A stretch of 53,417 nt of DNA from an uncultured Polyangiales bacterium (GCA_964456305.1 CAYWAT010000004.1:1-53417); one strand, 5' to 3'; shown: positions 8,372-52,091, counted from the first letter of the stretch. Made by a program: numbers and translations. The notes: a model not told the origin generated them from the sequence alone.

Positions 8372-8976
8372 ATCTGTATTGTGCTGACCTGTATGGAATG
8401 ACACGCTGACTGAACCTCGATCCCCGCTGCCAGAGCGAATTGGCTCTGGCCACTAGCAAAGAGAATCTGCCGAGGGTGAGAAACCGGACTAGAGAGAGCA
8501 GCCTAATAACAGCTCTCAAGGAGATTAGTTTCAGTCCCGTCTAACACTAGCTATAACAACTTTGAACCGAATTGACCGTTAACAAAAACAGAAATTTAAC
8601 GGGAGCCGCCGGAAACTAGCTGCTGAGGTTTGCCGTTGGCGCTGGGGGTGTACCCCTGGCGACGCTGACGACGCTTGCGACGCTTGCTGTTACCTAAGTA
8701 GGCCATGATGCACCATCCTTACTTGTGGCTTGCTTGTCGGTCGATACGGCTGCCCTAGATGTAGGAAAGGACCGCTACGGATTTCCCTATCTTGCCTAGG
8801 CAGCCTGTTCATAGGTTAGCTTCATTCCCGACTGCCATAATTCCAGAAGCAGCGGGTTGTCAGGCGCTTTACAGCGGCTGGGATCGCCGCTTGGGGATAT
8901 CTCTACCCCCTTATCTACTAAAAGGGTATTTATAATTTTAGCTATAGAGATATATTATCGAGCGACCATACGCCCT

Positions 8977-9654
8977 ATGCCCGACCTCGCTGTCCTTGCC
9001 CAAAGATTAAAGACTGGGGATCTTAAAGATAAGAAGCTGTCCCTGGCTGCCCTCAGGGACGTTCCTAGTCCTGAGGCAGTAGAGCTGATCAAGCTAGTGC
9101 TAGATGATGACAATCAGCAGGTGCGCTCCATGGCCATTTTTGCCCTGGGGGTCAAGCCCACCGATGAATGCTTTCCCCTGCTGGTCAGAATTCTAGAGAC
9201 CGATCCAGACTACGGCATTCGCGCGGATGCTGCCGGTGCCCTGGGCTATCTAGAGGATCCCCGTGCCTTTGAACCCCTGAACCGAGCCTTCTACGAAGAT
9301 ACGGATTGGCTGGTGCGGTTCAGTGCGGCCGTTTCCCTAGGCAATCTCAAAGACCCCCGCGCCCATGACGCCCTACTGCAGGCCCTCAACGGTAAGGAGG
9401 TGATCCTGCAGCAGGCGGCCATCGCCGCTCTAGGAGAGATTGGCGATATGTCTGCTATTGATGACATTCTTGCCTTTGCCCAGGCTGAGGACTGGCTGGT
9501 GCGTCAGCGGCTGGCGGAGGCCCTGGGCAATCTGCCTAGCCCTAAAAGTCTGTCAGCCCTGCGCTACCTGGTTAAGGACGAACATTCTCAGGTGGCAGCG
9601 GCGGCTCGGATCTCCCTGGAGCGTCTTGACGCCGCTAGCGCCGCCGATGCCTAG
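8977..9654 (+). CDS. HEAT/PBS-lyase repeat protein, NblB-like (CpcE/F lyase-related)
   Basis: Repeated 'VR..A..ALG.L' HEAT_PBS units, e.g. 'DPDYGIRADAAGALGYL' and 'DTDWLVRFSAAVSLGNL'; ATG at 8977. Confidence 0.85.
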   Translation: MPDLAVLAQRLKTGDLKDKKLSLAALRDVPSPEAVELIKLVLDDDNQQVRSMAIFALGVKPTDECFPLLVRILETDPDYGIRADAAGALGYLEDPRAFEPLNRAFYEDTDWLVRFSAAVSLGNLKDPRAHDALLQALNGKEVILQQAAIAALGEIGDMSAIDDILAFAQAEDWLVRQRLAEALGNLPSPKSLSALRYLVKDEHSQVAAAARISLERLDAASAADA

Positions 9655-12638: not shown

Positions 12639-14336
12639 TTAGCTTCCGCCGGCGGCGGTGGTATCCCGACGGTAGGATTGCAGCACTGTGATGCCCTCCA
12701 GGAGGGTGCGATCGCGACTGAGGTGGGGCAGTTTTACCTGGGCATCGTCCTGGACGCCGGGCCGGAGGCGGCGCTGGCGCAGCTGCTTGAAGCTGCCGGG
12801 AGCCAGGACGTTTAGCTGGGGGGCGGTAATATCACCCCGGCGGCGCTTTGACCCGTAGGACTCATTGGTCCGCTGCATGCCCTGATCGAAGTGCTGCAGC
12901 ATCTCCTCTAGTCGGGCGGAGGACTGGTCAGGCCCTAGCTCAATATTCAACACGTAGTAGGGATCGACCAGGGATGGTGACAGCGTGACGCAAAAGTCCT
13001 CGACGGTCAACGTTTTTCCGACCTCGGCCATGACCTGGGAGGCGTGGTGCTCCGTCGTTTTTTCAGAAATAGCCGAGAGGGTGCCCCCCCGGCGGTAGCG
13101 AAAAACAATCACCGGCACCCCGTCCCGCATTTCCAACACCTGGAGCACATCCCCCAGGTCGTATCGGCAAAATCCGGAGTAGTTGGTCACCAGCACTCGA
13201 TAGTATTCGCCCACCTGTAGCTCATGGGGCAGCAGGGTTTTAGGCGATGCCGCTTCCCACTGGTCCGGGGCAATAAATTCGAAAAAATTGGTCTTGATAG
13301 CCAGAATGGCACCATCTTGATTGAGATAGCAGCAGCTGCCAAAGACTGCCTCGGAAGCGGCATAGGTACCGCCAAAGACGGGCAGATCGCCGAAGTATTC
13401 GTCAAATCGCTTGAGATAAAAGTCCGACGGCCCACCCCGAGCCGTAATTAGAAAAGACAGCTGGGGCCACACGTGGCGCGGCAGCAGCCGACCGTGGGTG
13501 TTTAGCAGCTGCTCTAGGGCCGCTGCCCGCCGGGGTTGAGGACGCAGCCGTCGCTCCAGCTGTTGACGTAGGGGGGCGGCGATATCTAAATCTTTAGCCA
13601 GGCTGCCCTGGCCTACGTCCGCCACTAGCTGGGGACCAAACCGCTCTAGATAGGTACACAGCTGCAGCATGATCAGAGGGAAATTTGCTGCAATATAGGC
13701 GAGCTGAGGATTTTGCAAAGCAAACAGCAAACAGACATAGTTGCGGGCTGCGGTGCTGCTAACGCTCAGGGCCGCCGCTGGCTGCACAAACAGCTGCTTG
13801 AAAACCAGGGCCGGTGTGGTCCGCAGCTGGTTGCCGCTGACGTGGCCGTAGGGAATGCCGCCGTCGGTTTCTCCCAGGGCCTGGGTGTTAGTCGTCAGTA
13901 GCAGCTGACCCACCGGACGATTTTGCTGACAGGCCTGGCCAAAGGCGTAGCCCATGGCCACCTGGTTGGCATAGGCCCGGGTCTGGCTCACCCGGCGGGT
14001 GATGGGTACCAGCTTGCGGCTGCCGGTGGAGCCGCTGCTCATATTGAAGACCTGCACCGGCAGCGGGGAGACGACCCCGGTTTCTCCGGCGGCGGCCCTT
14101 TCAAAGTAGGGGCTGTAGTCGTCATAGCTCCAGCGGGGAACCTGCTGGCGAAACTCTTCAACGGTGGTAACCCGGTCTAGGCCCAGGGCCTGGCCCAGGG
14201 CAGTAGGGCGTTGCTCCTTGATCAGCCGCTGAAGAAACTGGGCCTGAATGGCATCCCCCTGTCTGAGCTGGCGGCCGAAGGAACGCTGTCGCCATCGGGC
14301 GGCCGCCGCAAAAACAGACACAACTGGATGAACCAT
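12639..14336 (-). CDS. GH3-family acyl-acid amido synthetase (adenylating enzyme)
   Basis: GH3 nucleotide-binding motifs 'SSGSTGSRKLVP', 'YAASEA' and 'RYDLGD', plus 'FFEFI' and 'EKTTE'. The real start is ATG 14336; the longer ORF overlaps the divergent gene. Confidence 0.9.
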   Translation of the reverse strand: MVHPVVSVFAAAARWRQRSFGRQLRQGDAIQAQFLQRLIKEQRPTALGQALGLDRVTTVEEFRQQVPRWSYDDYSPYFERAAAGETGVVSPLPVQVFNMSSGSTGSRKLVPITRRVSQTRAYANQVAMGYAFGQACQQNRPVGQLLLTTNTQALGETDGGIPYGHVSGNQLRTTPALVFKQLFVQPAAALSVSSTAARNYVCLLFALQNPQLAYIAANFPLIMLQLCTYLERFGPQLVADVGQGSLAKDLDIAAPLRQQLERRLRPQPRRAAALEQLLNTHGRLLPRHVWPQLSFLITARGGPSDFYLKRFDEYFGDLPVFGGTYAASEAVFGSCCYLNQDGAILAIKTNFFEFIAPDQWEAASPKTLLPHELQVGEYYRVLVTNYSGFCRYDLGDVLQVLEMRDGVPVIVFRYRRGGTLSAISEKTTEHHASQVMAEVGKTLTVEDFCVTLSPSLVDPYYVLNIELGPDQSSARLEEMLQHFDQGMQRTNESYGSKRRRGDITAPQLNVLAPGSFKQLRQRRLRPGVQDDAQVKLPHLSRDRTLLEGITVLQSYRRDTTAAGGS

Positions 14337-14414
14337 GGTAGACCCGCTTACTTCACAAGTCGTAATTTTTTCACAATAATGGGTAGCAGAAAAGACCGCT
14401 CTACCGGAGTCCCC

Positions 14415-14903
14415 ATGTCTCAGCCTGCTGTTTTCCTGCTTAGTTTCGTAGCGGCCTTTGTGTTTGCCAGCTTTGTTGAATACTGGATGCATCGCCTGAT
14501 GCATGCCTCTCCCCGGGTGGGCCAGCGCCACCGGGATCACCACCGTCGCAACGAGGCCCAGGGGGTGATTTGGGAGTTTCGTGACTATGTGCTGGGCAGC
14601 GCGATCGCAATGGCGGTGCCGTTTTTCTTCTCCGTCACCGTCGGCATTGGCTGGGCCGTGGGTGCCCTGGTCTATGCTGCCTTTTCCGCCTACGCCCACC
14701 AGCTGCAGCATGAAAACCCCCGCCGCTGCTTCTGGATGAAGATGCCGGTCCACTACGTTCACCACAAGTACGGCATGTGGAACCACAATTTTGGCCTAGC
14801 CGTAGACTGGTGGGACCACGTTTTTGGTACCTACAAGCCCGTTGAGTGGCCCGCTGCCGATGATCAGGCCGCCCTACCTATGCTGGCGGTGCGCTGGTGG
14901 TAG
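14415..14903 (+). CDS. Fatty acid hydroxylase / sterol desaturase superfamily membrane di-iron enzyme
   Basis: His boxes 'EYWMHRLMH', 'HRDHH', 'HQLQH', 'HYVHH', and 'NFG...WWDHVFGT'; hydrophobic segments. Confidence 0.9.
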   Translation: MSQPAVFLLSFVAAFVFASFVEYWMHRLMHASPRVGQRHRDHHRRNEAQGVIWEFRDYVLGSAIAMAVPFFFSVTVGIGWAVGALVYAAFSAYAHQLQHENPRRCFWMKMPVHYVHHKYGMWNHNFGLAVDWWDHVFGTYKPVEWPAADDQAALPMLAVRWW

Positions 14904-14909
14904 CAAGAC

Positions 14910-15647
14910 CTAGACGTTCTGGCCCCAGGTTTCGTAGTTTTCCTTAGCCTGCTTGACCTGGGGCGACAGGGCAAGCAGCTGGGAGACACCCCAGTTCACC
15001 CAGGACAGGGGAAACCGAAAGGGGCGCTCAATATCTAGAAATAGCACCACTCGGTAGCCGTCGGTGTCGTTCCAAACCTCGTGGTAGTAGGTGTCATCAA
15101 AAATCAGGCTTTTGCCCTCCTGCCAGTGGGTAATTTCCTCCCCTACTCGAATCCGACATTTTTCCCTAGGCTCTGGCACCCGCAGCCCCAGGTGGTAGCG
15201 AATCAGCCCCTTGTGCTTGCCCCGGTGCTCGGGGATATGTTTCCCCGGAGCCAAAATTGAAAAAAAGGCCACCTTCAGCCCTGGAATATCTTTAATCAGC
15301 TCCCAGGTGCGGGGGCAGCGCTCACAGTTGCGAGTGGCTACAAACCCAAAGCTGCAGAAGTAGTAGGTTTTCCACTTGCTGTCCGGGCTGATGCGGCTCT
15401 GACGCGGCATGATGTCCTGGAAGCTGGGTAGCGCGTTGACCTCCTGCAGCACCTGGTCTAGCTCCTGGCGAATGGTCTGCCAGTTTGTCTCTAGCTCGGC
15501 GGCCCAGGAAAAAGTCTGGGTCGGAAAGAAGGCCGCATTGCCCAGGGGGGAGCTTTTGCCCAACCAGGCTTCAAACCGACGATAGCCAGGTCGATCAAAA
15601 ATTGGATGAATGGGGGTTTCGGGACTGCGAGGTAGGGAAACTGACAT
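14910..15647 (-). CDS. Aspartyl/asparaginyl beta-hydroxylase (AspH/LpxO-like) Fe(II)/2-oxoglutarate dioxygenase
   Basis: 'LETNWQTIRQEL', 'CPRT', 'FSILAPGKHIPEHRG...RYHLGL', 'FDDTYYHEVWN...RVVLFLD'. Confidence 0.9.
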   Translation of the reverse strand: MSVSLPRSPETPIHPIFDRPGYRRFEAWLGKSSPLGNAAFFPTQTFSWAAELETNWQTIRQELDQVLQEVNALPSFQDIMPRQSRISPDSKWKTYYFCSFGFVATRNCERCPRTWELIKDIPGLKVAFFSILAPGKHIPEHRGKHKGLIRYHLGLRVPEPREKCRIRVGEEITHWQEGKSLIFDDTYYHEVWNDTDGYRVVLFLDIERPFRFPLSWVNWGVSQLLALSPQVKQAKENYETWGQNV

Positions 15648-15776: not shown

Positions 15777-16208
15777 ATGAAGCATCCTCTACTCGGTGCC
15801 GCTGCGATCGCAATGTTAGCCATGCCTGCGGCGGCCCAGGTAATTCCGGTAGATCAAACCCCCGAAATGGCCGATCGGCTCCTCCAGGAAGGCTACTTGC
15901 CCCTGGCCGATCAGCCGGGGCTGCGGCTGGAGCTGGAGTGCCGAGCCTATCTGGCGGTGAGCTTCCCTAACGGGTTTATTGAACCGGCCTATCTCAATGC
16001 CGACGTTGAAGCCACCTTTGTAGAAGCAGGACGGCGCGGCGGCGTTTTCTCTGACACCATCTACGAGTACGGAGGGCCGATTGCCCGGCGCGTGGGGGAG
16101 CTGATGACCCTGAGTAACAGCGCCGTTGATATTGAGTCAGGCCTCAAGCTGCAGTTTCTCTACGAGGAGCTTGAGACCTTTGTCTGTGCCCAGCTGCCCA
16201 AAGGCTAG
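15777..16208 (+). CDS. Hypothetical secreted protein
   Basis: Signal peptide 'MKHPLLGAAAIAMLAMPAAAQ'; two Cys; fills the gap between neighbours. Confidence 0.7.
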   Translation: MKHPLLGAAAIAMLAMPAAAQVIPVDQTPEMADRLLQEGYLPLADQPGLRLELECRAYLAVSFPNGFIEPAYLNADVEATFVEAGRRGGVFSDTIYEYGGPIARRVGELMTLSNSAVDIESGLKLQFLYEELETFVCAQLPKG

Positions 16209-25205: not shown

Positions 25206-25676
25206 ATGCTCAGCAAACTGAAAAATCTGGTATCCGAAGTGGACGGTCGCTACGCCACCGACGGGGAGCTAATGTTTCTCAAAGGCTACCTTGAGACCGC
25301 CCACCTACGCTTTAGTGCCTATCAAAAAATCCAGGCGGCCGAATCGAAAATCGTGCAGCAGGTCAAGCAGCAGATCAAAAGCACCGAACCTCAGCTGCTC
25401 CGCAGTGGTCCAGCGGATCTTAGCGGTAAGTGGCAGCGCGACACGCTACGGGGACTGCGCTACTGCGCCCACGCCATGCTGGTGGCTGACAGCGATGGCC
25501 TCGAAGAAAACTTTTTACTGTGGTTTCAGGCCGTGATGCGCGCCTTTAAGGCCCAGCCTAGCTGTGATGCTACCTATCGAATTCTTCAGAGCGTAGTCCG
25601 TCAGTATCTGACCCCGGAGGAAGCTGGCCTATTTTGTCCGATTTTGGAACAGGCCCGCACCACCTTGGGCCAATAG
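25206..25676 (+). CDS. Phycobiliprotein (globin)-fold protein of a Pap-like operon
   Basis: 'VDGRYATDGEL' resembles the phycobiliprotein 'ADxxGRYLSxxEL'. 'KWQRDTLRGLRY' resembles 'CxRDxxYYLRY'. Confidence 0.75.
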   Translation: MLSKLKNLVSEVDGRYATDGELMFLKGYLETAHLRFSAYQKIQAAESKIVQQVKQQIKSTEPQLLRSGPADLSGKWQRDTLRGLRYCAHAMLVADSDGLEENFLLWFQAVMRAFKAQPSCDATYRILQSVVRQYLTPEEAGLFCPILEQARTTLGQ

Positions 25677-25744: not shown

Positions 25745-26425
25745 ATGAATATCGCCCCAGTCGTTCCCCACAAGCTGCGTCAAAAATTTCCCAAAAAGCA
25801 CAATCACTTCAGCTTTGATACTTTCTTTCAGTTCAATCCTGACCAGGGCACCATCACTGACTGGAACAACAGCCGCAATATCCTAACTAGCGAAGACTTT
25901 ATCATCGGTCTGCAGGAAGGGCTAGAAGAAGAGGTCGGAGCTGCCTCTGCTGCGGTCATGTATTCCATTGGGGTGGAATGGGGCAAGCAGGACTCCCTGT
26001 TCTTTGAAAAGTGGTTTGAGCAGGAATTTGACGTCAATCCTCGCCAGTCAAATCTCATGTTTTTGCTAGAGACCTGGTGGTGGCCTTTCACCGCCCAGGG
26101 ATGGGGCCGCTGGGAAATTGACATGGCGGAGCGAAAACATGGGTTTATGTTTATTAACCTCTTTGACTCCGCCGTTGCCCGTACCCTGGGAGATGTCGGT
26201 AAGCCGGTGTGTTTTTTATACGCTGGGCTGTACGCCGGTTTTTTTACCGAGATGGTGCGTAAGCAGCTGAGCTGTATCGAAATTCAATGCTATTCCATGG
26301 GTGAAACCTACTGTAAGTTTTTGCTGGGCTCAAAGGAACGCATCGATGCGGCGACCTTTTGGCTTAACGAAGGCGCCTCAGCCAAGGAAATTGAACAGCG
26401 GCTCAAGGCCGGAGAACGGCTGTGA
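25745..26425 (+). CDS. V4R domain protein (Slr0144-like)
   Basis: 'AQGWG', 'PVCFLYAGLYAGFF...LSCIEIQCYSMGETYCKF'. Confidence 0.88.
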   Translation: MNIAPVVPHKLRQKFPKKHNHFSFDTFFQFNPDQGTITDWNNSRNILTSEDFIIGLQEGLEEEVGAASAAVMYSIGVEWGKQDSLFFEKWFEQEFDVNPRQSNLMFLLETWWWPFTAQGWGRWEIDMAERKHGFMFINLFDSAVARTLGDVGKPVCFLYAGLYAGFFTEMVRKQLSCIEIQCYSMGETYCKFLLGSKERIDAATFWLNEGASAKEIEQRLKAGERL

Positions 26426-27236: not shown

Positions 27237-27896
27237 ATGGTCTCCGTTGCCGATCTGCTCATCGATAGTAAGCTGTCTGCTAACTATTTTGCCCGTGACG
27301 TCTACGTACGCGGCACCCTCGATCTGGGGCTGCTAGAAAACCGCCGGGGAGATCGGCTACTGGCGCTGCCGGATACCCTCATCCGAGCGATCTATTCGGG
27401 GTTAGATCGAGAAACCGGTCAGGCTGCCATGCTGGTGCTCCACAACTGCGGTCGCTGGTGGGGCAAAAATTTTTACATGCGCTTTAGCGAAGAGCTGGCC
27501 GACTACCACGGTCAGTCAATACGTTCCCTACCTATGGCAGTGCTAATACAGGCCCTGCAGCAGTGCTGGCAAACCCACGGCTGGGGCCACATTGCCTTGG
27601 ACAATACCCACCAGGACCAGGGCTTTTTACTGATTACAACTGAAAATTCAAGCTTCGTACGCTACGCTCCCAAAATTGAGCGTCCGGTATGCTTTTTAGA
27701 GGCTGGCATACTGCAGTCATTTTTTAGTCAGTTAAGCGGGCGGGAACTACACTGTGTACAAACAGCTTGTGAATCGCTTGGTGCCGATCGTAATTATTTT
27801 GTGTTGGGGCTTAAACAACGTCTCTCCGTGGCAGAAACCTGTGTCGATCAGCAGCTCTCCCACCTCGAGATCATGGAAGCTCTAACGTCGGTGTAG
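27237..27896 (+). CDS. V4R domain protein (Slr0147-like)
   Basis: 'GLLENRRGDRLLALP', 'THGWG', 'PVCFLEAGIL...ELHCVQTACESLG'. Confidence 0.88.
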   Translation: MVSVADLLIDSKLSANYFARDVYVRGTLDLGLLENRRGDRLLALPDTLIRAIYSGLDRETGQAAMLVLHNCGRWWGKNFYMRFSEELADYHGQSIRSLPMAVLIQALQQCWQTHGWGHIALDNTHQDQGFLLITTENSSFVRYAPKIERPVCFLEAGILQSFFSQLSGRELHCVQTACESLGADRNYFVLGLKQRLSVAETCVDQQLSHLEIMEALTSV

Positions 27897-27920: not shown

Positions 27921-29684
27921 GTGCTCCCTGATAGCATCCGGCGCTCCAACTATCGACGCCTCGGCCTGATTGGCAATGGTCAGTTTGGTCGTGTCTACTG
28001 CGCCATTCATCGTCATACCGGCCAGCTGGTAGCTCTGAAGCATCTCTACCGCTACAGCCTGCCGACCCGGGCTTTTCTGCGGGAGCTGCGCTGTCTGATG
28101 AGCGTTGAGCATCCCAATATTGTCACCTGTCAGGCTTTAGAACATAGCGATGACGGTCGCCTGCTAGTGCTTGAGTACTGTGCCGGGGGGACTTTGCGAT
28201 CGCACATGACCCAGGCAATTTTGCCCAGCAGCGACCAGCTGCTTTGCTACATCAGGGACATCTTGCAAGGCCTCGCCCATGCCCATCAGCAGGGCATTAT
28301 CCACTGCGATGTCAAGCCAGAAAATATTCTGCTGCACTATGCCCAGGACCGCTGGCAGGCCAAAATATCGGACTTCGGCATTGCCAAGCTGGTACAGGAC
28401 CGCCAGCAGGCTGGCGAGGCTTCTGGCTACACTGGTTCACCCGCCTATATGGCCCCGGAGCGATTTGACCGCTACTTTTCGCCCGCCGCCGATATCTATG
28501 CTGTCGGTGTAATTTTGTTCGAGCTGCTTGTGGGTCATCGGCCTTTTTCCGGCACGGCCCAGGATCTCAAACAGGCCCATCTAGAAACCCCGGTTCCTCG
28601 CCCCGAGCAGCTTAGCGGTCCGCTTAAGCCTATTATTCTGAAAGCGCTGGCCAAGCAGCCCGAACACCGTTACGCCAGTGCTGCCGACATGCTGGCGGAA
28701 ATAGACAGTATCCCTACCCTAGCCAGCCAGGTATTTACCTCTCCCTGCGCCTATTCCCATCAGGCTCCACAAATCTATCAGAGGCCCCCCCTGCGCAAAC
28801 TGCGTCGACCCATCAATCAGCTGATATCCACCTCCTCCTTAGGGCTAGTCTGGGCCCAGGGCAAACAGCTCCACGACTATCCTGAGGGGAGCTTCTCCCA
28901 CAGCAGCCATCAGACGTTGGACAGCCCGGTTCAAGGACTCTACATCTCAGACAAAAATATTTTTGTCAGTACCCTGCAGAGTCTGTGGCAAGGCAGCTTG
29001 CACCGTCGAGACCTGCTGACGCCAATCGCCCACTGGAAGTCTCCTACCCTCACCGTCGTAGATACCCGGTATGGATGGGTTGCCGCAGCGACCCCTCGAT
29101 ACAAGCGACTTACCATGGGGCTGCTACGCCAGCCTCGGCATATGCTTGCCTCCTGCTATCTGCCCCAGGCTAAAGACGTAGAGCAAATACTGCTGGTGGA
29201 CGCAGGTCACCTGGCCTTAGTAAGTCGGTCCGCAGGCAGTGGTACCCAGCTACATCTGTGGACCCGGCGCGGCCATGACCTAGGCAAGTTCACCCTTGGT
29301 ATTACCCTGCGGCACATCACGCCGACGAGCCGTCCGTATCAGTGGCTGGGGGTAGACGAGCGCAACACAAATACCATGGTGATTTTGCAGCTAAAGCCCC
29401 TGCGAATTACCTGCTTGGAAGTTGAAATTTCTCCCCGGTGGCTATTGGAGATGTCCTGGGGGTATCTCTTGGCCGATCGCCAGGGAAAGCTGCTCCTCCT
29501 CGACCGCGACGGCTATCCGGCAGGCTCTATCCATGGACCCGCCGATATTACTGCCATGACCCCCCTAACCGATCACCAGCTGCTCCTTGCCACCTGGCCA
29601 GAGTCCCACCCGTCCGATCGGCAGTCTCAAGGGCAGCTACATCAGCTCAACCTGAAGCAGTTTGATTTAGATATTCTGTTCTAG
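27921..29684 (+). CDS. Hanks-type Ser/Thr protein kinase with beta-rich C-terminal domain (SpkG-like)
   Basis: GNGQFG, VALK, HCDVKPEN, DFG and YMAPE motifs; last gene of the V4R operon. Confidence 0.9.
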   Translation: MLPDSIRRSNYRRLGLIGNGQFGRVYCAIHRHTGQLVALKHLYRYSLPTRAFLRELRCLMSVEHPNIVTCQALEHSDDGRLLVLEYCAGGTLRSHMTQAILPSSDQLLCYIRDILQGLAHAHQQGIIHCDVKPENILLHYAQDRWQAKISDFGIAKLVQDRQQAGEASGYTGSPAYMAPERFDRYFSPAADIYAVGVILFELLVGHRPFSGTAQDLKQAHLETPVPRPEQLSGPLKPIILKALAKQPEHRYASAADMLAEIDSIPTLASQVFTSPCAYSHQAPQIYQRPPLRKLRRPINQLISTSSLGLVWAQGKQLHDYPEGSFSHSSHQTLDSPVQGLYISDKNIFVSTLQSLWQGSLHRRDLLTPIAHWKSPTLTVVDTRYGWVAAATPRYKRLTMGLLRQPRHMLASCYLPQAKDVEQILLVDAGHLALVSRSAGSGTQLHLWTRRGHDLGKFTLGITLRHITPTSRPYQWLGVDERNTNTMVILQLKPLRITCLEVEISPRWLLEMSWGYLLADRQGKLLLLDRDGYPAGSIHGPADITAMTPLTDHQLLLATWPESHPSDRQSQGQLHQLNLKQFDLDILF

Positions 29685-50525: not shown

Positions 50526-51494
50526 CTAGAAGGTAACGTTGGCGGCTTGAACCGTCTCTACCTGCTTCTTCTTAAGGACCAGCATAATTTGGGTAAGGGT
50601 AGCTGCGCCCAGGAAGGCTAGTAGTCCCTTAATCCGGTTGGGGCTCTGTAGAACGATTTCAGTGTCGTGCTGACCAAAGCCGCCAACGTTGGGATCGTTG
50701 GTGAGAGCACTACCAGCGGTAACAGTGTCTCCCTCAGCCACGATTAGCTCAGGGCCGGGCTGCAGGGTCTCAGTTACGGTCTTACCGTCTTCGGCTTCGA
50801 TGGTGACGGTGGTCTGGTAGTCGCCTTTATCGATGGCGGTAATAGTACCTGCCTTGGAGGCGGTGTACTTCACGTTGTTTGTGGCCTGACCGGTGGGATA
50901 CACCTGACCACGGCCGCGGTTTCCACCGACGTGGATCTGATATTTCCCGAAGCTGATGTTCTTATCAGTAGCCGGGTCGGGAGACAGAATTGGAAAGACG
51001 ATTTCCTGATACTGTTCACCGGGTACGGGACCCACTAGCAGAATGTTGTCCTGCTCTTCGCTGTAGGGAAGGAAGTAGGTACTGCCCACCTCTTCTTTTA
51101 GCTCTTCGGAGATACGATCTTCAGGAGCTAGCTTGAAGCCTTCGGGCAGCATCAGCACTGCGCCTACGTTCAGGCCTCCTTTGCTCCCGTCGCCTAGCAC
51201 CTGCTGGGCATCTAGGTCGTAGGGTACTTTGACTACCGCCTTAAATACGGTGTCGGGCAGTACCGCCTGGGGCACTTCAATCTCAGTCTTTTTCTGACCT
51301 AGGTGGCAGTTGGCACAGACAATCCGACCGGTGGCTTCCCGAGGAGTTTCGTAGTTCTCCTGGGCCCAGAAAGGGTAGGCCGCTGCGGACTGGGCATTGG
51401 TCAGTACCAGGCTGATGGTCGCGATCGCAACGACGCAGCCGACGACAGCCGTTTTCAGCAGTCTATTCAAAATACTCAGCAAATCAAATTTCAT
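50526..51494 (-). CDS. petA: Apocytochrome f
   Basis: Mature N-term 'YPFWAQ', heme motif CANCH, 'GGNRGRGQ', C-term TM and 'LKKKQ'. Confidence 0.98.
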
Positions 51495-51548: not shown

Positions 51549-52091
51549 CTAGCTCCACCAGGGAGCTTCCCCGGTTCTAAAGTCTGTTTCAGTCCAGGGA
51601 GTTAGCGACACCTTATCGTCTTCGCCAACTTCCACGTGGGCCAGGGCCAGGGAGAGGGGAGCCGGGCCGCGCACCACTTTACCCGTTGCATCGTATTGAG
51701 AACCGTGGCAGGGGCACATGAACTTGTCTTCGCCAGAGTTCCAGGGAACTACGCAGCCTAGGTGTGTGCAGACAGCATTGATGCCATAGTCACCGACGGA
51801 CCCGTCCTCGGTCACCACCAGGTAAGTTGGGTCACCCTTAAGACCCTGTACCAGGGAGCGGTCGCCAGGATCGTGAGTAGCTACGTAGCTGGTCGCCACA
51901 ACGTCGTTACCCAGCTCGTCTTTAGCACTCACTCCGCCGCCAGCAGCGCCGCTGCTCGGAGGTAAAAAGTACTTGACGATAGGGTAAAGCGCTCCTACGG
52001 CCGTACCGGTGGCTGCTCCAAACGTGAGCAGGTTCATAAATTGGCGACGCCCTAAATCGGGAACGTCAGGGTTTCCAGAAGCTTGAGCCAT
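51549..52091 (-). CDS. petC: Cytochrome b6f Rieske iron-sulfur subunit
   Basis: Tat motif 'GRRQFMN', CTHLGC and CPCHGS boxes. Confidence 0.98.

Follow-up and report, generated by a model that had tools for sequence, protein, structure and literature searches.

The three genes at 12639–15647 of the window, by which we mean the whole 53,417-nucleotide stretch analysed, encode a GH3 acyl-acid amido synthetase (GH3), a small FA_hydroxylase protein (FAH) and an AspH/OlsC-like Fe(II)/2-oxoglutarate (2OG) dioxygenase. Their comparison across genomes links a cyanobacterial GH3 group with some ten specific genes, including that of an SPT-like condensing enzyme, through repeated adjacency and all-or-none co-occurrence. 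This gene set appears to serve a sphingolipid-like or amino-acid-containing membrane lipid. We give even chances to the reading that the trio contributes amide formation and hydroxylation to a conserved cyanobacterial lipid pathway whose genes are partly dispersed, in which GH3 would N-acylate a pathway amine and the two oxygenases would hydroxylate the lipid.

GH3 (12639..14336, minus strand, 565 aa) begins with an ATG at 14336 and is divergent from FAH (14415..14903, plus strand, 162 aa), with 78 bp between the two ATGs, while the stop codons of FAH and of the convergent AspH-like gene (14910..15647, minus strand, 245 aa) lie 6 bp apart. ORF listing and start-codon analysis confirm exactly the tight packing described in the original prediction, and in relatives conservation sets in at about residue 1, which backs the starts. 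A longer GTG-initiated ORF of 715 aa for GH3 was rejected, as it overlaps the FAH gene and its extension is not conserved. The 78-bp intergenic region (14337..14414) is probably a shared promoter/operator region, to judge from two TTCACAA (TTGTGAA) boxes at 14352–14358 and 14370–14376. Across the window and 12 aligned close relatives, conservation extends to the ATTATTGTGAAA box and to another, ATTGTGAA-like one, and two of the five occurrences of the TTCACAA heptamer in the 53-kb window fall in this region; the TTGTGAA box is absent from the eight distant FAH-GH3 intergenic regions examined. Beyond the AspH-like gene lies ORF143 (15777..16208, plus strand), a conserved 143-aa protein of no known family (no Pfam or NCBIfam match) with an N-terminal signal or anchor segment, hydrophobic at residues 4–26. 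Of the 21 close-relative loci 18 contain it, and no distant locus does; because it is a neighbour of the AspH-like gene in the close clade alone, its place in the module is uncertain.

The contig is cyanobacterial, yet it is binned with a non-cyanobacterial genome. In the order and phylum of the window's own assembly, GH3 genes occur only at 25–37% identity, and a photosystem II gene was found in none of 21 genomes of these relatives. We thus re-centred the comparison on Leptothoe kymatousa. The locus is present in five DNA metagenome runs, four of which are its probable source, and the listed holders include no RNA run.

GH3 matches the Pfam N, M and C domains with 229.2, 69.6 and 61.5 bits (PF03321, PF23571 and PF23572; cut-off 23.6 each), and its closest PDB matches are plant GH3 enzymes (JAR1, E 1.9e-33). 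The segments nmSSGStGsrK, tYaaSE and cRYdLGD align with the three nucleotide-binding motifs of JAR1, which we take to be the SSGT-, YxxSE- and YRxGD-type motifs. Judged by its domains and motifs, GH3 is an adenylate-forming, amide-bond-making enzyme. It shares with JAR1, GH3.8 and GH3.12, its best solved relatives, a full-length alignment and conserved adenylation motifs; the similarity to these plant enzymes reaches E-values of only 1e-33 to 1e-25, and the gene context differs in being lipid-related rather than hormone-related.

A bacterial precedent is OlsH of Singulisphaera (JBC 2025), reported to make N-acyl-ornithine from free fatty acid with ATP and Mg (PMC12493201). Only with that work was a bacterial membrane lipid traced to a GH3-type enzyme, and it assigned no function to the many other bacterial GH3 homologues. 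Planctomycete OlsH always shares an operon with the alpha/beta-hydrolase O-acyltransferase OlsI (PMC12493201). The predicted idea of a GH3-made aminolipid has therefore since been demonstrated, for OlsH; the concept is no longer new, and only its cyanobacterial version is. Like the enzyme of the OlsH-OlsI(-OlsG) system of Singulisphaera acidiphila, the window's GH3 has the GH3 fold with three conserved nucleotide motifs, and by analogy it would share the ATP- and Mg-dependent coupling of free fatty acid and amine that needs neither CoA nor ACP (PMC12493201). Unlike in that system, it has no adjacent OlsI alpha/beta hydrolase or OlsG methyltransferase; it is accompanied by FAH and the AspH-like dioxygenase and, at genome level, by the cluster of an SPT-like alpha-oxoamine synthase (AOS). 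The main texts searched yielded no characterised cyanobacterial GH3, and the consulted part of a 2026 review does not name cyanobacteria among the orders with OlsH homologues (PMC12971839).

FAH belongs to the FA_hydroxylase superfamily (PF04116, 57.7 bits, cut-off 31) and carries four His boxes (HRLMH, HRDHH, HQLQH and HYVHH) and two to three hydrophobic segments (residues 1–25 and 58–94), as expected for a small membrane di-iron hydroxylase/desaturase. Among PDB entries it comes closest, though weakly, to the ceramide fatty-acid 2-hydroxylase Scs7p (69 residues, E 0.004). It has the superfamily, His boxes and membrane-embedded fold in common with OlsE and with Scs7p/FA2H-type enzymes; unlike these, it counts only 162 aa and has no cytochrome b5 domain. 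The AspH-like protein belongs to the Asp_Arg_Hydrox family (PF05118, 185.2 bits). The His, His and Arg columns conserved in its alignment with human AspH are presumably the Fe-binding (His, His) and 2OG-binding (Arg) residues of the latter. The catalytic motifs of all three proteins are thus intact, as had been predicted, on the strength of the GH3/JAR1 and AspH/human AspH alignments and of the FAH His boxes. LpxO has been described as an inner-membrane dioxygenase; the AspH-like protein shares the Fe(II)/2OG Asp_Arg_Hydrox family with OlsC, OlsD and LpxO, with OlsC as best NCBIfam match aligned almost full length. Unlike them, it stays below the cut-offs, and it appears soluble, since a search of its sequence found no hydrophobic segment. 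PMC12971839 describes OlsC, OlsD and LpxO as acyl 2-hydroxylases, and OlsE as a di-iron hydroxylase.

These likenesses bear on the possibility of a stand-alone OlsH-like aminolipid pathway, along the lines first proposed and mechanistically independent of AOS, in which GH3 would N-acylate ornithine or another amino acid, FAH would act OlsE-like on the head group and the AspH-like enzyme OlsC/OlsD-like on the acyl chain. OlsH, OlsC and, faintly, OlsE are indeed the nearest NCBIfam models, which agrees with the named families proposed at the outset, and none of the three proteins reaches a curated cut-off. The scores fall far short: 85.6 bits against 620 for OlsH (NF052613; two stretches matched, the best being residues 274–530), 255.6 against 450 for OlsC (NF052565; residues 31–243 on positions 35–247 of 259 in the model) and 12 against 475 for OlsE (NF052566; E 0.094). 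LpxO membership of the AspH-like protein was likewise rejected (NF033391, 130.8 bits, cut-off 500). A PlsC-type acyltransferase, which we take to be of the OlsA family, lies directly upstream of GH3 in L133, L134 and L137, and a cysteate synthase, an Asp/Glu racemase and a PLP decarboxylase occur near GH3 in L118, L119 and L121, as if supplying an amino-acid substrate. Against this, the genes on either side of the trio in the window include neither an OlsI-like alpha/beta hydrolase nor PlsC, no cyanobacterial ornithine lipid has been identified according to PMC12971839, and co-occurrence with the AOS cluster in 24/24 genomes, set out below, would be left unexplained. We regard a stand-alone pathway as unlikely.

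GH3, FAH and AspH adjoin one another recurrently and co-occur at genome level. In close-relative loci, FAH lies beside GH3 in 21/21 and AspH in 18/21. Among 29 regions from 23 distant cyanobacterial genomes (GH3 38–48% identical), 11 have FAH no more than 8 kb from GH3, against about 0.1 in 29 expected by chance (own arithmetic for a single-copy gene in a 5-Mb genome, the genomes being kin and not independent), and AspH adjoins GH3 in three. A quick tree of GH3 with SH-aLRT support (37 rows, after removal of 15 near-identical ones from the close clade and of any shorter than 450 aa) places the FAH link in both major clades. Orthologs of GH3 (38–73% identity) are spread across many cyanobacterial lineages and were found in 24 of 401 sampled cyanobacterial genomes; FAH orthologs (at least 65% identity) occur in 27 of the 401, including all 24 with GH3, and AspH orthologs (at least 62%) in five, all of them GH3+FAH genomes, with four of the five adjoining GH3. 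These counts are from related genomes and carry no phylogenetic correction. As a negative control, 63 loci of distant GH3 genes are without these neighbours, save one weak Rieske match. Adjacency across the deep split of the GH3 tree and genome-level co-occurrence of orthologs support the functional tie that had been claimed for the three genes. That they might be neighbours by descent only, with unrelated functions, is already disfavoured and the least probable of the readings considered: the full trio is indeed confined to one clade, which shares wider synteny (Pirin, LysR, ORF143), but distant genomes that lack this synteny also have FAH or AspH next to GH3, and co-occurrence is complete for FAH (24/24) and AspH (5/5). 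Other genes also accompany FAH. An Amidohydro_2 partner is present in 18 loci and was not found in G439, G440, G786, G457 and G598 by a search run without a positive control, and a B12-radical SAM enzyme lies near the FAH operon in several loci.

The trio itself, originally taken as the unit, does not hold up as such. AspH is accessory, being present in only 5/24 GH3+FAH genomes, and GH3 and FAH always co-occur with the AOS cluster. Taking at least 70% identity as the threshold, we found an AOS ortholog in 24/24 GH3+FAH genomes and 3/3 FAH-only genomes, in 0/7 genomes having only a 51–63% FAH-like gene, in 0/8 having only an AspH paralog and in 1/38 arbitrarily chosen others. Besides AOS, the cluster encodes a GNAT-domain acyltransferase of 380 aa together with an SDR reductase, a Rieske oxygenase and an MFS transporter. 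Directly next to GH3 in L112, L114, L116, L122, L125 and L131 lies this SDR-GNAT-AOS-Rieske / MFS block, all module genes are contiguous in several genomes, and the block stands apart from GH3 in Leptothoe kymatousa, Leptolyngbya PCC 7375 and G786. In the window's Leptothoe-like clade it is encoded elsewhere in the genome, and the original prediction could therefore not see it. GH3 was not found in four AOS-bearing genomes (G734, G630, G660 and G442) and hence seems not to be essential to the core. The main texts searched contain no GH3-AOS link.

The closest PDB match of AOS is serine palmitoyltransferase (4e-39), with cysteate-C-fatty acyltransferase at 9e-27. Among NCBIfam models it scores higher for BioF (235 bits, cut-off 426) than for SPT (175 bits, cut-off 640), below all cut-offs. 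A protein-atlas look-up of the GNAT protein returned generic GNAT clusters only. In other cyanobacteria, 5/11 loci with AspH paralogs are FAAL-ACP-AOS or PKS-AOS clusters, which independently ties the dioxygenase family to AOS-derived lipids. In the 70 GH3/FAH/AOS loci, tblastn with cyanobacterial FAAL and ACP queries found neither.

The same neighbourhood has to be weighed against a non-lipid role. The substrate that GH3 joins to an amino acid might be a non-lipid acid, for instance a small aromatic one, yielding a hormone-like, siderophore-like or secreted metabolite that would be exported by the MFS transporter and tailored by Rieske, FAH and AspH. The plant hormone-conjugating enzymes are the best solved relatives of GH3, and the MFS transporter, accompanied by the VanA_C-type Rieske oxygenase, abuts GH3 in nine distant regions. 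The partners are nevertheless of lipid type, namely an SPT-like AOS, a membrane di-iron FAH with a ceramide 2-hydroxylase as its best PDB match and an OlsC/LpxO-like enzyme; an Mpo1-like 2-hydroxy-fatty-acid dioxygenase, a GDSL lipase and a PlsC acyltransferase also co-occur, and the only characterised bacterial GH3, in the part of the report consulted, uses fatty acids (PMC12493201). A small-molecule product thus seems decidedly unlikely, and the predicted alternative of a hormone-like signal found no specific support.

A triterpenoid link may exist, given the resemblance of SDR to HpnA (220 bits) and SdmB and of Rieske to the sterol-demethylase component SdmA (238 bits). The gene set would then modify the side chain of a hopanoid or other triterpenoid, for instance by (amino)acylating an amino-bacteriohopanepolyol, with GH3 forming the amide; the B12-radical SAM enzyme near the FAH operon and a squalene-hopene cyclase that follows GH3-AspH in L120 would fit. 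All these scores are below cut-offs, however, and the cyclase adjacency is seen in only one of 29 regions. We also know of no role for AOS in hopanoid synthesis, and consider this reading very unlikely.

We thus favor a lipid pathway whose core would consist of the SPT-like AOS, the GNAT acyltransferase, SDR, Rieske and MFS. In it, GH3 would adenylate a free (hydroxy) fatty acid with ATP and then transfer the acyl group to an amine. If the amine is a long-chain amino-alcohol base made by AOS and SDR, the product would resemble a ceramide or sulfonolipid; if it is an amino acid (cysteate or ornithine, for example), an OlsH-like lipoamino acid would result. A point against this role of GH3 is that the core GNAT-domain protein could already be the N-acyltransferase. 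Hydroxyl groups would then be added to the acyl chain or the base by FAH, the membrane di-iron enzyme, and by the soluble OlsC/LpxO-like dioxygenase. What the comparison establishes is the identity of the genes, their intact motifs, their recurrent adjacency and their co-occurrence at genome level; substrates, step order and the membrane-lipid nature of the product are what we infer. The arrangement recalls the Caulobacter ceramide set (Spt-CerS-CerR with AcpR and AasR; PMC11324152, in part) in combining AOS with candidates for an N-acyltransferase and a dehydrogenase, an adenylate-forming enzyme and acyl hydroxylases. Unlike in Caulobacter, the AOS scores fall short of the SPT cut-offs, the loci searched with the cyanobacterial queries yielded neither an ACP nor a FAAL-type synthetase, and GH3 would be the adenylating enzyme instead.

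A narrower version of this pathway, which we regard as tentative and rather unlikely, makes GH3 an ATP-dependent, CoA- and ACP-independent ceramide-synthase-like enzyme that would N-acylate the AOS base (mostly serine-derived, in a few genomes cysteate-derived and capnine-like), with FAH and AspH adding hydroxyls. To our knowledge, no sphingolipid genes have been assigned in cyanobacteria. Sphingolipids are reported from only two cyanobacteria in the part of PMC8895605 consulted, whose Nostoc punctiforme 'SPT' is a BioF-like AOS and not this cluster. If true, the narrower version would provide the first genetic basis for cyanobacterial sphingolipid- or sulfonolipid-like lipids, and GH3 would be a candidate for sulfonolipid N-acylation, a step without an assigned enzyme in the parts of the sulfonolipid literature consulted. 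The capnine/sulfonolipid pathway comprises cysteate synthase, cysteate fatty acyltransferase and 3-ketocapnine reductase (PMC11211663, PMC9304779, each in part). Three genomes resemble it in having a true cysteate synthase beside GH3 together with AOS and SDR; unlike it, the window's clade, represented by the proxies L. kymatousa (G439) and G440, yielded no cysteate synthase. True cysteate synthases (TIGR03844 over cut-off) number three among 65 genomes, all 0.1–3.6 kb from GH3; 3/28 AOS-bearing genomes have one and 25/28 do not. The PLP enzymes of L132, L151 and L153, which had clustered with cysteate synthase, do not qualify as such under the family model; G514 and G734 gave no match at 1e-60, and the sole match in G688 is the L118 copy. 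The gene set is present in the culture-collection strains Leptolyngbya sp. PCC 7375, Geitlerinema sp. PCC 7407 and Halomicronema hongdechloris, which makes directly testable which amino-lipid cyanobacteria make, and with which genes.

The window carries genes for cytochrome f (50526-51494), the b6f Rieske protein PetC (51549-52091), a PBS-lyase HEAT protein (8857-9654) and a phycobilisome-family protein (25206-25676), and the nine genes round the trio of GH3 amido synthetase, di-iron fatty-acid hydroxylase (FAH) and AspH-like Fe/2OG dioxygenase share synteny with genomes of the Leptothoe and Leptolyngbya PCC 7375 type, their proteins being 60-85% identical. No photosystem II core genes were found in the assembly to which the window was assigned (G000; 2.7 Mb, 213 contigs) or in 20 of its relatives, and among the bin's contigs of at least 5 kb, C4, the window's contig, stands out by 7 sigma on the second tetranucleotide axis. 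The window DNA is cyanobacterial, and C4 is probably a mis-binned contig. Searches of G000 itself are thus uninformative on the window's organism, for which Leptothoe kymatousa (G439) and Leptolyngbya sp. PCC 7375 (G440) served as proxies.

The trio consists of GH3 (12639-14336, minus strand, 565 aa, ATG at 14336), FAH (14415-14903, plus strand, 162 aa) and the AspH-like dioxygenase (14910-15647, minus strand, 245 aa), with 78 bp between the divergent starts of GH3 and FAH and 6 bp between the convergent stops of FAH and the dioxygenase. A 715-aa GH3 reading frame from an upstream GTG was rejected, as this start falls inside the neighbouring gene and the extension is unconserved. All three proteins exceed the Pfam cut-offs (GH3 N, M and C domains; FA_hydroxylase; Asp_Arg_Hydrox). 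GH3 matches plant JAR1 end to end in the structural database (E 1.9e-33) and keeps three adenylation motifs, while the dioxygenase, in which no hydrophobic segment was found, aligns with human AspH (E 1.9e-22) and keeps the His and Arg residues that in the human enzyme serve as Fe and 2OG ligands. FAH contains four histidine boxes as well as two to three hydrophobic segments; among solved structures it comes closest, though only weakly, to Scs7p, a ceramide fatty-acid 2-hydroxylase (E 0.004). Hence, ORF, Pfam and structure alignments bear out the original prediction as to genes, coordinates, gaps and motifs in all details.

That prediction also had GH3 taking the place of an OlsB-type transferase in an aminolipid or N-acyl-amino-acid pathway. 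The concept has a precedent: as described for Singulisphaera acidiphila, a planctomycete, a GH3-like enzyme (OlsH) converts free fatty acid with ATP and Mg to N-acyl-ornithine, the second acyl chain is then added by OlsI, an alpha/beta hydrolase, and other bacterial GH3 homologues may take other amino acids (PMC12493201). Since OlsH has been published, the idea is no longer conceptually new. Membership of the trio proteins in the named families is ruled out by scores below the cut-offs: GH3 reaches 85.6 bits on the OlsH model, held by NCBIfam as the equivalog 'lyso-ornithine lipid synthetase OlsH' (cut-off 620), the dioxygenase 255.6 bits on OlsC (cut-off 450) and 130.8 bits on LpxO (cut-off 500), and FAH 12 bits on OlsE (cut-off 475). 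In a 2026 review, OlsC and OlsD are LpxO homologues, cyanobacterial orders are absent from the list of orders with OlsH homologues, and ornithine lipids are described as not identified in cyanobacteria (PMC12971839). Weighing the precedent against these scores, we consider an OlsH-like lipoamino-acid pathway standing alone unlikely.

By protein search, GH3 orthologs of 45-73% identity occur in many cyanobacterial lineages, including Leptothoe, Halomicronema, Romeria, Geitlerinema PCC 7407, Lyngbya, Rivularia, Richelia, other Nostocaceae, Halothece and Crinalium. FAH adjoins GH3 in 21 of 21 close-relative loci and AspH is found in 18 of them, being missing from L038 and L051, with L046 ending at a contig edge. 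Because this close clade has wider shared synteny, linkage was also looked at in distant genomes. There, among 29 regions extending 8 kb to either side of the GH3 copies of 23 genomes, FAH lies within 8 kb of GH3 in 11 and AspH is adjacent to it in three; no region has both near GH3, and 15 have neither. Across the phylum, in raw counts that ignore kinship, 24 of 401 genomes have a GH3 ortholog (E below 1e-120), 27 an FAH ortholog (at least 65% identity), among them all 24 GH3 carriers, and five an AspH ortholog (at least 62% identity), all within these 24. A quick tree of GH3 (37 rows, SH-aLRT support only) separates the window's clade from all other orthologs with full support, and the GH3-FAH link is present on both sides of the split. 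At 63 loci of more distant GH3 genes, controls that comprised genes of the myxobacterial phylum and divergent paralogs of cyanobacteria, the neighbours of the trio and its wider gene set were absent bar one weak Rieske match. These adjacency, co-occurrence and negative-control counts make GH3 and FAH a conserved pair; AspH is accessory and adjoins a GH3 gene in four of its five carrier genomes. The recurrent linkage expected of all three genes in cyanobacterial neighbourhoods therefore holds for FAH and only partly for AspH. That synteny alone links the trio, as the shared gene order of the close clade would allow, seems hardly credible beside the pairing in distant genomes.

Clustering of all ORFs of the fetched regions, followed by scanning of representatives, revealed further partners. 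Next to GH3, an MFS transporter gene recurs together with a divergently oriented block that encodes a Rieske oxygenase (SdmA being the nearest model, at 238 bits), an alpha-oxoamine synthase (AOS), a GNAT-domain protein of 380 aa and an SDR closest to the HpnA and SdmB models. The block adjoins GH3 at loci L112, L114, L116, L122, L125 and L131; together with the MFS gene it lies 730 kb from GH3 on the same contig in Leptothoe kymatousa, and it occurs in PCC 7375 and genome G786 as well. Among solved structures, the AOS is closest to serine palmitoyltransferase (4e-39), with cysteate-C-fatty acyltransferase matching at 9e-27; of the NCBIfam models, BioF gives it the highest score, and it falls short of every cut-off. 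In a survey of 80 genomes at 70% identity or more, AOS orthologs were present in 24/24 genomes with GH3 and FAH and 3/3 with FAH only, in 0/7 with only an FAH-like gene of 51-63% identity, in 0/8 with only an AspH paralog, and in 1/38 arbitrarily chosen others. From the occurrence of the block and these counts, the window trio appears to be an arm of a scattered pathway centred on the AOS cluster. A secreted conjugate of a small molecule, with which the MFS transporter and the JAR1 match would agree, appears distinctly improbable beside the lipid-type enzymes that co-occur with GH3.

FAH furthermore heads an operon in 18 genomes (L116, L119, L122, L123, L125, L127, L129-L132, L142, L144-L148, L151, L154), together with an Mpo1-like protein of the 2-hydroxy-fatty-acid dioxygenase family PF06127 and an Amidohydro_2 protein of about 463 aa, to which decarboxylases and the oxygenase PtmU3 are related among solved structures. 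This operon, which was not found in four of the five AspH-ortholog genomes (G454 has both), may be an alternative tailoring module.

The neighbours also bear on the chemistry. True cysteate synthases (TIGR03844 over cut-off) occur in 3/28 AOS-bearing genomes and 0/37 others among 65 cyanobacterial genomes, and all three lie 0.1-3.6 kb from GH3, at L118 (G688) with a PLP-dependent decarboxylase and a VTT-domain protein, at L119 (G690) with a methyltransferase and an Asp/Glu racemase, and at L121 (G598), a pattern suggestive of a sulfonated head group (cysteate, taurine or capnine-like). In three related genomes the gene before GH3 encodes a PlsC-type acyltransferase, at one locus a GDSL lipase sits between GH3 and FAH, and at two a JmjC/Cupin_8 oxygenase occupies a place beside GH3. 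AspH paralogs of other cyanobacteria (49-55% identity, often tandem) lie inside other AOS systems in 5/11 loci (L165, L166 and L167 in G792, G686 and G752; L170 and L171 in G457 and G454), so that the dioxygenase family is independently tied to AOS-derived lipids in cyanobacteria. Three of these clusters contain FAAL-type AMP-binding enzymes, ACP, AOS, B12 radical SAM, a KshA-like Rieske protein and a GT1 glycosyltransferase, and two loci lie beside a KS-AT-DH-ER-KR-ACP-AOS megasynthase (PKS), a PagL-like deacylase and PMT_2 transferases; both kinds would seem to be additional, uncharacterised clusters for sphingoid-like lipids. Neither FAAL nor ACP was found near the GH3-type system in 70 loci searched with cyanobacterial queries, and GH3 is the sole adenylate-forming enzyme in sight there.

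The data establish who the genes are, their motifs, their adjacency and their co-occurrence; on top of these we propose a joint mechanism, for which we infer the substrates and step order and which we hold to be about evenly balanced between right and wrong. GH3 would activate a free fatty acid, which may carry a hydroxyl group, as the adenylate and join it in amide linkage to an amine of the AOS pathway. Hydroxylation of the acyl chain or of the base would follow, by FAH as the di-iron membrane enzyme and by the soluble dioxygenase of OlsC/LpxO-like type. If the amine is a long-chain base from AOS and SDR, the product would be a ceramide-like lipid, or a capnine-type lipid in genomes with cysteate synthase; alternatively, the amine could be an amino acid, as with OlsH. 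Against this mechanism speak four AOS-bearing genomes without GH3, the GNAT protein, which may already be the N-acyltransferase, the co-occurrence counts, which are raw with respect to kinship, and the similarity of the Rieske and SDR pair to sterol and hopanoid enzymes. Hopanoid modification, which that last similarity would suit, is nevertheless very improbable in our judgement.

Our literature search found neither a characterised cyanobacterial GH3 nor a GH3-AOS link. In an earlier study, sphingolipids in cyanobacteria are recorded only for Scytonema julianum and Moorea producens, and a test of the one AOS that Nostoc punctiforme possesses yielded no sphingolipids. As it groups there with cyanobacterial BioF homologues, we rejected it as a member of the GH3-linked AOS cluster (PMC8895605). 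Our findings give the vague class of 'bacterial GH3 homologues' the form of a defined gene set, open to testing in strains that can be cultured; Leptolyngbya sp. PCC 7375, Geitlerinema sp. PCC 7407 and Halomicronema hongdechloris carry it.

The GH3/FAH spacer (14337-14414) contains two TTGTGAA boxes, at 14352-14358 and 14370-14376, which read TTCACAA on the plus strand. An ATTATTGTGAAA box stays unchanged across the window and 12 close relatives, is missing from distant FAH-GH3 spacers, and may represent an operator or promoter element specific to the clade. Beside the AspH-like gene, a 143-aa protein (15777-16208, plus strand) that carries an N-terminal hydrophobic stretch and matches no family is conserved in 18/21 close relatives and absent from distant loci. 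Elsewhere in the window, the phycobilisome-family gene (25206-25676) is followed, in an unusual grouping, by V4R-domain proteins (25745-26425, 27237-27896) and a Ser/Thr kinase (27921-29684). In the myxobacterial part of G000 (C107 3535-4620, C10, C109) we observed a 32%-identical full-length homologue of the cyanobacterial 380-aa GNAT-domain protein and two AOS genes of 25-28% identity, which together could be the bin's own sphingolipid genes.
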